DNA of 55,585 nucleotides, from positions 1 to 55,585 of the forward strand of contig DASUGC010000111.1 in the NCBI GenBank assembly GCA_036274235.1, given 5' to 3'. The notes beneath the pieces were generated by a model that was not told the origin of the DNA, made no database searches, and saw only the letters and a list, made by a program, of their open reading frames with translations. Of this stretch, positions 47,058-54,224 are shown one piece after another; position 1 is the first letter of the stretch; the number at the start of each line of letters is the position of its first letter. The DNA is from Vicinamibacterales bacterium. Lineage in GTDB: Bacteria; Acidobacteriota; Vicinamibacteria; Vicinamibacterales; SCN-69-37. The translations under genes were made by a program, and so were the position numbers.

Positions 47058-48509
47058 CTACGCCCGTCCCCTGACCCGCCGGCCCCGATCGTGCCGGCCG
47101 CGATCCCGCTCCGGCCGGCCTTCCCTGTCCGGACGGCGATCGCGTTCCCGCTCCGGCCGCCGGTCGCGCTCCGGCCGATGATCGCGCGGGCGATCGCCCG
47201 GAGCGGGGCTTGGGCCGGCGATGCGCGCGAACAGGCGCTCGTACTTCCGCAGGATGCTGCCCCAGCGGTAGTGGCGGTTGATGTAGAGCTTGCCGTTGTG
47301 GCCGAGCGCCGCGCGCAGCTCGGCATCGCGCATCAGCAGTTTCAGGGCCTCGCAGAACTCCCAGCGGTCGGCGTAGTACAGCCCCGCATGGCTTTGCCGG
47401 CAGTGCTCGACCAGCACCTCCGACTGCGCGTTGACGAGCACCGGCGTCCCGGCGGCCATGGCCTCCAGCGCCAGCAGCGACAGGCTCTCGTACGGTGAGG
47501 GCACGACCACGACCGTGGCGGCCTCGAGCGCGTGCAGCCGTTCCTCGTCGGGCAGCAGGCCCGCGAAGCGCACGTGCGGATCCTCGGGGAGCGGCATCAT
47601 CTTCGCGCCCATCAGCATCAGCGTGGCATCGCCATGTTCGCGGACGTAAGCCTGGAAGTACTCGAGCAGTTCTTCGCAGCCCTTGCCGCGATCGATGCGG
47701 CCGCCGTAGAGGACAAACGGCTCGTGAATGCGGTGCCGGCGGCGGAACGCATTGGCCGGACCTTCCAGGTGCGGCGCGAGCGGCTCACGCTTGTCGGCGC
47801 CCTCGAGCCGCCGCTGCCACTCGAATTGCGGCCGTTTGTCGAAGCCGCTCTCCGCCTCTTCATGGCCGTCGCCGTCACTTTCGGTAATCGCCTCGCCCTC
47901 CGGCAAATCGATTCCGCAGCCGACGACATCCTCGACGACCGTGCGAAGCGTGAAGCGGGAGGAGACAAAGCGGCGCTCGGCCTCGGTGTTCCACGCGATC
48001 GCGGCGGCGCTTCCGAAGACCTCGCGGTACATGTCGAGGTGAATCGGCGGCTCCTCATGCGCGGTCGGGACGAGGAGAGACTTGGACGGCGCAATCCGGA
48101 TGCCCAGCACGGTTGGCGCGTAGAGATAGGTGAAAAAGACGAGCACGTCGTACGACTGATGATGCCGCTGGATGTAGTCGATGAGGCCGGGCGACCATGG
48201 CCCCTGCTGCTTGAGCCATTCCGACTCGTCCTGGCCGGTGTGGCGTTCGTGATACACGCGTTCGGACAGCCGGTTGAAGGCCTGCATGTCGCGTGTGCGC
48301 GATGTGGCAAACCGTCGCACGGTCACGCCGCGCATCCGGTCGGCGCCTTCCGGATACTCATTGGCCCACGTCAGGTAATCGCGCGCGCACGTCGTCAGGA
48401 CATCCACCTGGTGGCGCGCCGCCAGCCGTTCGGCCACGAGCCGGCAGTGATGCTCGGCTCCGCCCAGGATGTCGGTTCCGTACCGCTGCACGACAAACGC
48501 GATTCTCAC
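47058..48509 (-). CDS. GT4 (GT-B fold) glycosyltransferase, type A' paralogue, with Arg/Asp/Glu-rich C-terminal tail
   Basis: 483 aa starting at a GTG in a GTGA overlap. The N-terminus [29 protein letters not shown] parallels the gene at 50802. The C-terminal Rossmann half has [26 protein letters not shown] (E-x7-E region). The tail is [44 protein letters not shown]. Confidence 0.85.
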   Translation of the reverse strand: [483 protein letters not shown]

Positions 48510-49573
48510 GACCCTACGGTCTCCAGGATCTTCAGGAAGGCGGGCTCGATGCGGCGGCGATCGAAGTCCCGCACACGCGCGCGCTGTCCGGCAAGCACAC
48601 CCTGCCGGAACGGCTCGTCGTAAATCAGGCCGCCGAGCAGCTCGGCGGCCATCTCCAGATCTTTCGGCCGGAACGACACACCGGCGCCGCCAAGTGTCTC
48701 CGGCACGGCGGTGCCGGCATACGCGAGCACGGGGACGTCCATCGACATGGCCTCGACGAGCGGCACGCAGAAGCCTTCATGTTCGCTCAGCGACACGTAG
48801 GCATGCGCGTGTCTGTAGTACGCCGCCAGCTCGTCTTCCGGCACCGCGCCGGTAAACCAGAAGCGATCGGCCGGAATCCTGAACGTCTGCACCATGGCCT
48901 GCACGGCCTCGAAGTAGCCGGGCACCACATCGTATCTGCCTACGAAGATGAAGCGGTAGTACGCATCCACATAGCGCATGTAGTGTTGTGCCAGGTGCAC
49001 GTGATGGTCGATGCGCTTCTGCGGCGCGATGCGGCCGACGAACAGGATGTTCACGAAGTCGTCCTGGAGCAGCCGGTCGAGCGCGGGGACGGGCGGCGCC
49101 CGGCGCAGGCGCTCGATGTCCACCAGAATCGGCAGCACCCGAGTCTCGGCGAACCCCAGTTCGTCGAGCTCCGCGCAACTGAACGCCGACGCGCCGGTCG
49201 CCAGATCCACGCGGCCGGCCAATGCCGCCAGCTCCTGCCGCGCGACCGCCGAGGTTCGCGCCATGCCGGCGTCGTACGGCGCGAAGAATCGGGCCGGTGT
49301 CACATTGTGGTACGCGAGGATGCGCGCGCCCGGCAGCCGTCCGAATGCGGCGCTCATGGGCGAGGCGGTCGCGAAGTGCAGGATGGTCACGTCGGCGTCG
49401 CGGGCCTCGGGCTCCTCCCAGGAGTAAATGTCCGACTCGAGCGCGCGATCGACGTGGATCGCAAAGATCTCCGATTCGTGTCCCCATCCCCGGCAGAGAT
49501 CGCGCAATCGCCGCGCCTGGTCTCCCACCGCGTCGCCCTGGTGTGCCGATGGCACCCACTGGTGGACGATCAC
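48506..49573 (-). CDS. GT4 glycosyltransferase, type B' paralogue
   Basis: 355 aa starting at a GTG in a GTGA overlap. MIVHQWVPSAHQGDAVGDQ parallels the gene at 49570. The C-terminal half has YVSLSEHEGFCVPLVEAMSMDVPVLA. Confidence 0.85.
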   Translation of the reverse strand: MIVHQWVPSAHQGDAVGDQARRLRDLCRGWGHESEIFAIHVDRALESDIYSWEEPEARDADVTILHFATASPMSAAFGRLPGARILAYHNVTPARFFAPYDAGMARTSAVARQELAALAGRVDLATGASAFSCAELDELGFAETRVLPILVDIERLRRAPPVPALDRLLQDDFVNILFVGRIAPQKRIDHHVHLAQHYMRYVDAYYRFIFVGRYDVVPGYFEAVQAMVQTFRIPADRFWFTGAVPEDELAAYYRHAHAYVSLSEHEGFCVPLVEAMSMDVPVLAYAGTAVPETLGGAGVSFRPKDLEMAAELLGGLIYDEPFRQGVLAGQRARVRDFDRRRIEPAFLKILETVGS

Positions 49574-53848: not shown

Positions 53849-53885
53849 GGGTTGGGCAGAGCGGAGCGCCGGCTCCGCTCCGGCG

Positions 53886-54224
53886 TCAGGAGTAGCTCTT
53901 GAGCGCGTCCGACTCCGACTCGAACGTCTCGAAGACCGTCAGGAGCTTGGTGATCATCAACAGGTCCGTGATGCGCTTGGTCAGATGGACCAGTTTGAGC
54001 TGTCCGCCCTGTCGGCTCACCGTTGTATACGTGCGGACGATTTCGCCGAGGCCCGCGCTGTCGATGTACGGCACTTCGCCCAGATTCAGCAGGATCTTCT
54101 TGCGATCCTGCTGGATCAGCGAGTTGATCTTGTCCTTGAGGACTTCGTCGCCCTCGCCGAGTGTGATTTTGCCTTTCAGGTCGAGAATCGTCACGTTGTT
54201 GACGACTCGTTCCTCGATCTGCAT
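53886..54224 (-). CDS. STAS-domain anti-sigma-factor antagonist (SpoIIAA/RsbV-like)
   Basis: I trimmed it to ATG 54224, which follows AAGGAG. The 112-aa sequence is MQIEERVVNNVTILDLKGKITLGEGDEVLKDKINSLIQQDRKKILLNLGEVPYIDSAGLGEIVRTYTTVSRQGGQLKLVHLTKRITDLLMITKL. It keeps the phosphorylatable Ser context (IDSAGLG). Confidence 0.88.
   Translation of the reverse strand: MQIEERVVNNVTILDLKGKITLGEGDEVLKDKINSLIQQDRKKILLNLGEVPYIDSAGLGEIVRTYTTVSRQGGQLKLVHLTKRITDLLMITKLLTVFETFESESDALKSYS

Follow-up and report, generated by a model that had tools for sequence, protein, structure and literature searches.

The minus strand of a 55,585-nt stretch of DNA from a Vicinamibacterales bacterium (GCA_036274235.1, contig DASUGC010000111.1, positions 1-55,585; hereafter the window) carries seven open reading frames (ORFs) that run head to tail from 54224 down to 47058, each in frame and with one terminal stop, and that very probably form a glycan-assembly operon in which a helical adaptor is paired with one of four glycosyltransferases. 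The best overall explanation, to which we would give about an even chance, is that this operon serves to build a glycoconjugate of the cell envelope on the cytoplasmic side of the inner membrane. The cluster is a near-universal, order-specific glycan locus of the Vicinamibacterales. The novelty lies in an order-wide linkage between a polyprenyl-phosphate 5-phosphoribosyltransferase (PPPRS) and cytoplasmic GT4 glycosyltransferases without the usual partners of such an enzyme, together with the adaptor, a probable if remote member of an undescribed family of small helical proteins. The GTGA overlaps between the genes, their 'mirror' order and the STAS protein as first gene are either commonplace or known from other systems.

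The first gene of the cluster encodes a STAS protein of 112 amino acids (aa; 53886..54224; PF01740, TIGR00377). It is followed by a UbiA-superfamily polyprenyl-phosphate 5-phosphoribosyltransferase of the PPPRS/DPPRS-like type (290 aa, 52976..53848; hereafter UbiA), predicted from NF008977 and a match to Rv3806c, and by the putative adaptor (290 aa, 52079..52951), recognized through its family relation and an AlphaFold2 (AF2) model. An earlier, sequence-only reading of this DNA had called the latter a coiled-coil/disordered protein and passed over it as filler; it proved to be the most informative gene of the cluster. Four predicted GT4 glycosyltransferases complete the operon: GT-A (426 aa, 50802..52082, with Glycos_transf_1 and Glyco_trans_1_4 above cut-off), GT-B (411 aa from the GTG at 50805, 49570..50805, identified by Pfam), the GT-B paralogue GT-B' (355 aa, 48506..49573) and the GT-A paralogue GT-A' (483 aa, 47058..48509). 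The same seven minus-strand genes had been proposed by the sequence-only reading; all ORFs were verified in frame, and the N-terminal peptides it quoted are present. The window has a GC content of ~65%, and the locus is near-identical in contigs from soil metagenome runs, whereas it turned up in no RNA-seq run.

Conserved gene order and overlapping junctions

Species-representative genomes were searched with GT-A and with the adaptor alignment, which returned 91 loci with the cluster (a few of them the same contig found twice), all from Vicinamibacterales or from loosely labelled Acidobacteriota metagenome-assembled genomes (MAGs). Candidate stretches confirmed by tblastn numbered 326, and the adaptor operon is carried by roughly 300 Acidobacteriota genomes. 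The order STAS, UbiA, (DUF362), adaptor, A, B, B', A' recurs in ~90 loci, whereas the genes upstream of the operon are variable and of housekeeping type (an RND pump, purD/E/B, RlmN, a peptidase). In line with this, the earlier view of the seven genes as one conserved operon is upheld. Median orthologue identity to the window protein amounts to 83% for the STAS protein, 62% for UbiA and 57-61% for the four glycosyltransferases, and the N-terminal domain of the adaptor is up to 94% identical in metagenome homologues and 40-89% identical in genome loci.

The junctions between the genes are equally informative. Four of them are 4-nt GTGA overlaps (52079-52082, 50802-50805, 49570-49573 and 48506-48509), the GTG start of GT-A being embedded in the TGA stop of the adaptor, and the remaining two are gaps, of 24 nt from UbiA to the adaptor and of 37 nt from the STAS gene to UbiA; the overlaps had thus been placed correctly before, but the count of five given with them was one too many. 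Overlaps of 4 nt occupy 4/6 operon junctions versus 2/22 other same-strand junctions in the window, and a binomial test of this enrichment returns P ~0.001-0.04, varying with the assumed background rate. A stronger argument against chance than this count is the conservation of the overlaps. A 4-nt NTGA overlap is kept between the adaptor and GT-A in 73/75 operons and between B and B' in 58/72 loci, and it occurs from A to B in 34/71 and from B' to A' in 12/65 loci. This conservation supports the GTG starts and indicates that coupling is real for the adaptor-A and B-B' junctions. Of the tight translational coupling claimed before, the part that stands concerns these two strongly conserved junctions, whereas a fixed stoichiometry over all four glycosyltransferases is less well supported. 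The GTG starts are additionally backed by orthologue alignments: the longest ORF for GT-B extends to 50970, but alignments with orthologues begin at residues 1-7 counted from GTG 50805, which makes the latter the better predicted start.

The putative adaptor, its family and the glycosyltransferases

No match to the adaptor was found in Pfam, in NCBIfam, among PDB sequences or in a Foldseek search of its AF2 model against the PDB. The model, built with a 22-sequence alignment, predicts three helices (13-28, 34-49 and 51-66) followed by a 74-residue helix (76-149, predicted local distance difference test (pLDDT) ~90), which together make up a helical N-domain (1-150), and a disordered remainder (150-290). 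A heptad pattern runs through the long helix, LIVMF residues taking up 62% of its a/d positions. The N-domain is the conserved part of the protein, and the tail varies. Within the tail, (GTT)n is encoded in frame by a tandem repeat of 9 nt, (GGTACGACG)n (52433..52489, minus strand); the repeat is not conserved in orthologues, and at this place metagenome contigs break and word depth jumps ~20-fold. Further on, ten Arg codons, all CGN, precede PGQNLAD and an acidic C-terminus (52214..52243, minus strand). Stretches of 6-11 consecutive Arg are retained by 61/63 adaptor orthologues, though the tail around them varies.

Relatives of the N-domain were found as small proteins encoded next to similar glycosyltransferases. 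In a Thermoanaerobaculia locus found via GT-A, a 149-aa protein overlaps the GT-A homologue by 4 nt, and the profile of this small family aligns with the N-domain of the window adaptor (hhalign 83%, E 9e-6). Likewise, the A3 hidden Markov model (HMM) has the adaptor ORF as its sole match in the window (E 7.5e-7, over two partial stretches). An exhaustive HMM search gathered 135 clusters at 50% identity, almost all of them stand-alone proteins of 150-180 aa, and Pfam gave no match on 39 members. The family signature consists of an N-terminal LMxxVRxRVR helix, a SHRP..G...KRR..P..W...NFxRQ core and a long C-terminal helix. In the window adaptor the SHRP/KRR/NFxRQ core is degenerate (YHRHRG...HPILKR), and membership by sequence is remote; one sequence, P0250, bridges the short subfamily and the window-type subfamily. 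A second, stand-alone module is also seen in Vicinamibacterales genomes (L098-L158), in which a ~150-aa adaptor homologue is followed by a GT-A-type GT4; two of these loci, L144 and L158, come from the same MAGs as the operon loci L005 and L062.

The pairing with a glycosyltransferase is a constant of the family. A GT-A-type GT4, ~40-45% identical to the window GT-A, lies directly downstream in 63/63 short-form loci, and no other conserved glycan gene accompanies this pair across the 63 loci. Moreover, in the metagenomic protein P0179 the small domain (residues 12-152) is joined in frame to a glycosyltransferase 39% identical to GT-A (E 2e-89), and in the fragment P0192 an adaptor domain is also fused to a glycosyltransferase. 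Another apparent fusion, P0183, looks frameshifted and was not counted. A divergent Wzt ABC-transporter gene in one Thermoanaerobaculia locus was set aside, since the GT4 gene is the only glycan gene conserved across the 63 loci. The invariant GT4 pairing, the overlap kept in 73/75 operons and the fusion together lead us to see in the protein an adaptor or scaffold dedicated to GT-A, and the coupling and the fusion suggest that it may physically bind this enzyme.

All four glycosyltransferases match PF00534 and/or PF13692 (Glycos_transf_1 / GT4) above the Pfam threshold. The names GT-A and GT-B, taken over from the sequence-only reading, are labels only and do not denote folds, all four being GT4 enzymes of the GT-B fold. 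The E-x7-E motif is kept in each (GT-A 297-305, GT-B 269-277, GT-B' 266-274 and GT-A' 341-349), and thus none looks like a dead subunit. No transmembrane segment or signal peptide is predicted in any of the four. Pairwise alignments confirm the suspected paralogy and resolve two pairs, A/A' (39% identity, E 3e-101) and B/B' (36% identity, E 1e-52), similarity between A and B being barely detectable. Since the paralogues are 36-39% identical and the orthologues 57-61%, the duplications predate the radiation of the order. The A-B-B'-A' layout is therefore best read, as far as sequence divergence can tell, as the product of old and separate duplications fixed before that radiation, rather than as the 'mirrored duplication' proposed before: all genes lie on one strand with no inversion, and the paralogues are far more diverged than the orthologues. 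GT-A' has an insert of ~45 residues relative to GT-A. It also ends in an Arg/Asp/Glu-rich C-terminal tail of ~49 residues (47061-47207, minus strand), outside the region aligned to orthologues. A defence-system reading was considered and rejected, as none of the seven proteins has a PADLOC match; the 34-bit match of GT-A' to PF20706 'GT4-conflict' coincides with a stronger, generic match to Glycos_transf_1.

The phosphoribosyltransferase, the STAS protein and the proposed function

UbiA reaches 288 bits against the NF008977 model ('decaprenyl-phosphate phosphoribosyltransferase', cut-off 234), whereas the models for haem-o (cyoE), ubiquinone (ubiA) and menaquinone (MqnP) enzymes all stay below 50 bits. 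Its best PDB match is Rv3806c (8j8j, E 1e-41, full length), other UbiA enzymes in the PDB (4tq3, 6m31) matching at E 1e-5 or weaker. The NDxxDxxxD motif corresponds to N55-D56-x-x-D59-x-x-x-D63. Of the 11 Rv3806c residues that contact 5-phosphoribosyl 1-pyrophosphate (PRPP), with roles as described for that enzyme (PMC10994848), nine are identical (R22, K28, Y70, N73, D77, K87, R90, Y138 and K143). The shared residues include R22/K87/R90/K143, the K/R cluster that binds the pyrophosphate of PRPP, as well as K28 and Y70, which contact the 5-phosphate. The two substitutions are Q135 to M117 and Y157 to F139; Phe at the Y157 position is also present in some mycobacteria. The contact residues are invariant in ~78 orthologues except at the Q135 position (L, M, F or Q), where the ribose-O3 contact of Rv3806c is replaced by M, L or F in most members. 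UbiA contains at least five strongly hydrophobic segments and is the sole membrane protein in the operon. On this evidence its sequence places it with the Rv3806c-type polyprenyl-phosphate phosphoribosyltransferases and not with quinone or haem prenyltransferases, and it should make polyprenyl-P-ribose-5-P from PRPP. The earlier description of a DPPR-synthase-like UbiA is supported by all three lines (NF008977, Rv3806c as closest relative, conserved PRPP residues); a grouping with the MenA/UbiA quinone enzymes was not seen, and the assignment stands.

As noted before, DprE1 and DprE2 are missing: neither occurs among the window ORFs scanned or read. Their absence from the window makes a ribofuranose-type lipid product, and hence the ribofuranose-type donor suggested earlier, a sensible reading. 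The only short-chain dehydrogenase/reductase gene of the window (5076-5834, plus strand) is of the glucose-1-dehydrogenase/FabG type and not DprE2-like. It precedes a gene for myo-inositol-1-phosphate synthase by ~640 nt (region 5076-7789, plus strand), 47 kb from the operon, and no link between this region and the glycan operon was found.

In relatives, UbiA is often accompanied by a DUF362 gene (~430 aa, ~85% identity among loci; seen at L001:5744-7057 and in 65 other loci), which lies between UbiA and the adaptor in 53/73 loci with enough upstream sequence. DUF362 belongs to the same Pfam clan as DUF2088, the LarA racemase domain (PMC11770544). Upstream of the adaptor, the arrangement STAS-UbiA-DUF362 is found in 51/73 loci, STAS-UbiA without DUF362 (the window type) in 15/73, STAS only in 5/73 and UbiA-DUF362 without STAS in 2/73. 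UbiA is thus part of the cluster in 68/73 assessable loci, and DUF362 was never seen without UbiA in the 73. In the window, tblastn detected no DUF362 gene or remnant (UbiA-adaptor junction 52951/52976). The direct junction is crossed by independent contigs from three metagenome runs, which indicates that the absence is real and not an assembly artefact.

The STAS protein matches PF01740 (E 7e-17) and TIGR00377 (71 bits, cut-off 53), its gene has a strong AAGGAG ribosome-binding site, and its DSAGLG motif does not vary among 78 orthologues. It is predicted to be of the single-domain anti-sigma-factor-antagonist type (SpoIIAA/RsbV). We take the serine of DSAGLG to be the position phosphorylated in SpoIIAA (Ser58). 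Family membership and the invariant serine motif are the reasons for modelling the protein as a switch. A STAS protein at the head of a glycan operon had been called atypical, but there are precedents: SypA heads the syp polysaccharide locus of Vibrio fischeri, where its mechanism of action is unknown (PMC4517449), and in cyanobacteria polysaccharides are controlled by STAS-glycosyltransferases (All4160 and XssP), those of the All4160 type being themselves controlled by phosphorylation (bioRxiv 10.64898/2026.04.08.717354).

Combining these observations, the following scheme can be proposed. The four predicted-active, retaining-type GT4 enzymes would add sugars derived from nucleotide sugars to a membrane-bound acceptor, which would be primed by an enzyme encoded elsewhere. 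The helical N-domain of the adaptor would partner GT-A, its long helix may oligomerise and space the complex, and the poly-Arg/acidic tail may make a further contact, possibly with the membrane or the polymer. UbiA would transfer 5-phosphoribose from PRPP to polyprenyl phosphate, and the lipid-linked ribofuranose would feed the same glycan, most likely as a pentofuranose donor for later decoration via a flippase and a GT-C enzyme encoded elsewhere; in most relatives DUF362 probably modifies the lipid-linked ribose first. The STAS protein may act after transcription as a phosphorylation-controlled switch on this machinery, as SypA does. What the analysis shows of this scheme are the family assignments, the conserved gene order, the coupling and fusion that link the adaptor with GT-A, and the conserved catalytic residues; we infer the acceptor, the sugars, the destination of the ribose and the STAS target. 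The role of the UbiA product as a donor in a separable decorating branch is held tentatively, somewhat short of an even chance, and is favoured over an initiating role because 5/73 loci keep the STAS protein, the adaptor and the four glycosyltransferases without UbiA, and because DUF362 tracks UbiA. It also agrees with every characterised PPPRS, whose lipid product serves as the donor for a periplasmic GT-C after dephosphorylation, optional epimerisation and flipping (PMC11127046).

Several observations weigh against this scheme. The cluster holds no initiating phosphoglycosyltransferase, polymerase or exporter, and the surface destination is assumed. A flippase, a GT-C, a phosphoribose phosphatase and an epimerase were all missing from the window and, in ~90 relatives, from the ~9 kb around the operon, and in characterised PPPRS systems the partner genes sit beside the PPPRS gene (PMC11127046). 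Likewise, neither an RsbW/SpoIIAB-type serine kinase nor a PP2C/SpoIIE-type phosphatase was detected in the window ORFs scanned or read or among the conserved neighbours; such partners may lie elsewhere in the genome. The nearest PDB relatives of the glycosyltransferases, sucrose-phosphate synthase, TreT and MshA (E 1e-8 to 1e-10), use small soluble acceptors. Finally, the evidence for fusion amounts to one full-length metagenomic protein and one fragment, and an AF2 model of P0179 made with no alignment reached a pLDDT of 38, so that the docking of adaptor and GT-A is unreadable.

Other explanations have to be compared with the envelope glycoconjugate. UbiA could itself initiate the glycan, in which case the four GT4 enzymes would extend polyprenyl-P-ribose-5-P in the cytoplasm on a monophosphate-linked pentofuranose base instead of the usual sugar carried on polyprenyl diphosphate. 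We know of no Leloir glycosyltransferase that extends a polyprenyl-P-pentose, which counts against this role, as do the five loci that keep the other components without UbiA and the fact that initiating enzymes often lie outside glycan clusters, WecA for Escherichia coli O9a being an example (PMC3482155). In its favour, UbiA is the sole membrane enzyme of a cluster that has no classical initiating transferase, it is present in 68/73 loci, and GT-C, flippase and phosphatase genes are not nearby in ~90 loci, unlike in every characterised PPPRS system (PMC11127046); on balance, the initiating role seems unlikely though worth keeping in view. A slightly less probable extension of it has DUF362 replacing DprE1/DprE2 as the remodeller of the lipid-pentose in most relatives; if true, this would be a glycan route on monophosphate-linked pentofuranose, specific to a dominant soil group. 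Alternatively, the operon could make a small-molecule glycoside or a storage glycoside in the cytoplasm, for instance a compatible solute or an oligomer resembling an alpha-glucan, with UbiA and the STAS protein as unrelated neighbours. The solved relatives (sucrose-phosphate synthase, the trehalose synthase TreT and MshA) point that way, as do the lack of an exporter in the cluster and the short adaptor + GT4 pair that stands alone without other glycan genes; but these PDB matches are weak and reflect generic GT4 similarity, UbiA is kept between the STAS and glycosyltransferase genes in 68/73 loci across the whole order, and four glycosyltransferases in two paralogous pairs with a coiled-coil adaptor suit a polymer better than a disaccharide, which leaves the explanation with a low probability.

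Protein glycosylation comes out as still somewhat less probable. Here the Thr-/Arg-rich disordered tail of the adaptor would be the substrate of the GT4 enzymes, as in the systems of GtfA/GtfB, the paralogous GT4 pair of accessory-Sec serine-rich-repeat glycosylation. The (GTT)n repeat of the window adaptor, the poly-Arg run in 61/63 orthologues and the tight translational coupling of the adaptor to GT-A would fit a substrate, yet the GTT repeat is not conserved, short members without a tail keep a GT-A-type enzyme as neighbour or fusion partner (63/63 loci), and a substrate fused to its enzyme, as in P0179, would be unlikely. To our knowledge, GT4 enzymes do not glycosylate arginine, which counts further against it. 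The least probable of all, and very improbable, is mere adjacency, i.e., seven genes that are not one functional unit and whose overlaps reflect the ordinary compaction of a GC-rich genome. Such overlaps do occur at 2/22 junctions elsewhere in the window, and neither a promoter nor a terminator is confidently predicted in or around the cluster; against this stand the order conserved in ~90 loci while the upstream flanks vary, the conservation of the overlaps themselves and the natural fusion of an adaptor homologue with a GT-A-type enzyme.

The envelope glycoconjugate would also have consequences beyond this locus. The Vicinamibacterales rank among the most abundant bacteria in soil, and few have been cultured; if the product is a surface polymer, it might help to determine how soil aggregates and how cells of this order tolerate desiccation or are recognized by phages. 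For glycobiology, the cluster links an Rv3806c-type phosphoribosyltransferase to cytoplasmic GT4 enzymes instead of a flippase and a GT-C, and it brings to light an unannotated small helical family that appears to be the obligate partner of one GT4 subfamily. Searches for DPPRS in Acidobacteria and for Vicinamibacter glycosyltransferase/exopolysaccharide found no published work on the operon or its envelope glycan.

Operon boundaries and comparison with known systems

A motif of the form CTTGTSRA-N17-TAGACT lies upstream of the STAS gene in 20/75 related loci, versus a mean of 2 in shuffles. The window has a TAGACT as putative -10 box (54406..54411, minus strand), ~180 nt upstream of the STAS start, for which no correctly spaced -35 element was found. 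Despite the conserved NtrC-type neighbour (see below), no sigma-54 promoter was detected upstream of the STAS gene, and a generic scan for sigma-70 promoters and terminators in and around the cluster gave no confident prediction. A GC-rich hairpin stands just before the STAS ribosome-binding site in a subset of relatives (L017-L093); the window has a longer GC-rich STAS leader (54225-54420, minus strand) with the hairpin GGGGACGAAGTCCCC at ~54240-54254. At the other end, a near-perfect hairpin of ~75 nt (46908..46982) occupies the 151-nt gap between the convergent stops of the NtrC-type regulator and GT-A'. The minimum free energy of 46900-47060 is -98.5 kcal/mol (z -8.3), and 0/200 shuffles fold as well. 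This hairpin is probably the 3' boundary of the operon, as a bidirectional terminator-like or repeat element. Rfam returned only spurious sub-threshold matches on 46800-55585 (miRNA matches at the hairpin).

Convergent to the operon, the plus strand encodes a PDZ-GAF-PAS histidine kinase (42580-45507) and an NtrC-type sigma-54 response regulator (45521-46906), both assigned by Pfam domains. The pair is syntenic downstream of the operon in ~59 related loci. These genes are treated here as conserved neighbours of the system.

Among known systems, the decaprenylphosphoryl-arabinose pathway of Corynebacteriales is the source of the closest solved relative of UbiA; UbiA is homologous to it over its full length and passes the NCBIfam equivalog cut-off. 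In contrast to that pathway, an Rv3807c-type phosphatase, DprE1/DprE2 and Emb/Aft GT-C enzymes are not in the window or near the orthologous operons, the host is a Gram-negative acidobacterium in which the lipid is probably not decaprenyl phosphate, and the neighbours of UbiA are cytoplasmic GT4 enzymes. The GtfA/GtfB pair resembles the window in that paralogous GT-B-fold proteins stand side by side and could form a hetero-complex (B-B' overlap in 58/72 loci). However, both members of each pair here keep E-x7-E, so that neither looks like an inactive chaperone, and there is no accessory Sec system.

Another point of comparison is provided by the three-component pentofuranose systems, which consist of a PPPRS, a MATE flippase and a GT136 GT-C and are known from Citrobacter youngae O1/O2 and from the Araf modification of Pseudomonas aeruginosa pilin (PMC11127046). 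In both cases a UbiA-type PPPRS lies inside a Gram-negative glycan cluster, and the DUF362 gene that adjoins UbiA in relatives of the window is a candidate auxiliary modifier. Only the PPPRS of the three components is found here, whereas no MATE/SMR flippase or GT-C lies within reach; the window UbiA (290 aa) has no fused HAD phosphatase domain, and DUF362 is unrelated to ORF13 or DprE1/E2. With respect to regulation, a STAS protein with a conserved serine motif leads a glycosyltransferase-rich polysaccharide locus here as it does for SypA, All4160 and XssP. Unlike in the SypA system, a SypE-like kinase/phosphatase is absent from the cluster, its neighbours being the convergent PDZ-GAF-PAS kinase and the NtrC-type activator.

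The closest parallel for the adaptor comes from E. coli O9a, where WbdD brings the GT4 mannosyltransferase WbdA to the membrane through its coiled-coil C-terminus and determines the length of the chain (PMC3482155). No sequence or fold match backs this comparison, and the window adaptor differs from WbdD in its much smaller size, in its disordered poly-Arg/acidic tail and in lacking domains of the kinase and methyltransferase types. The logic of the two loci is analogous, as in each of them a long coiled-coil protein is genetically linked with a GT4 enzyme of the glycan cluster. Thus, by analogy with WbdD-WbdA, it is plausible that the adaptor acts as an adaptor or spacer.

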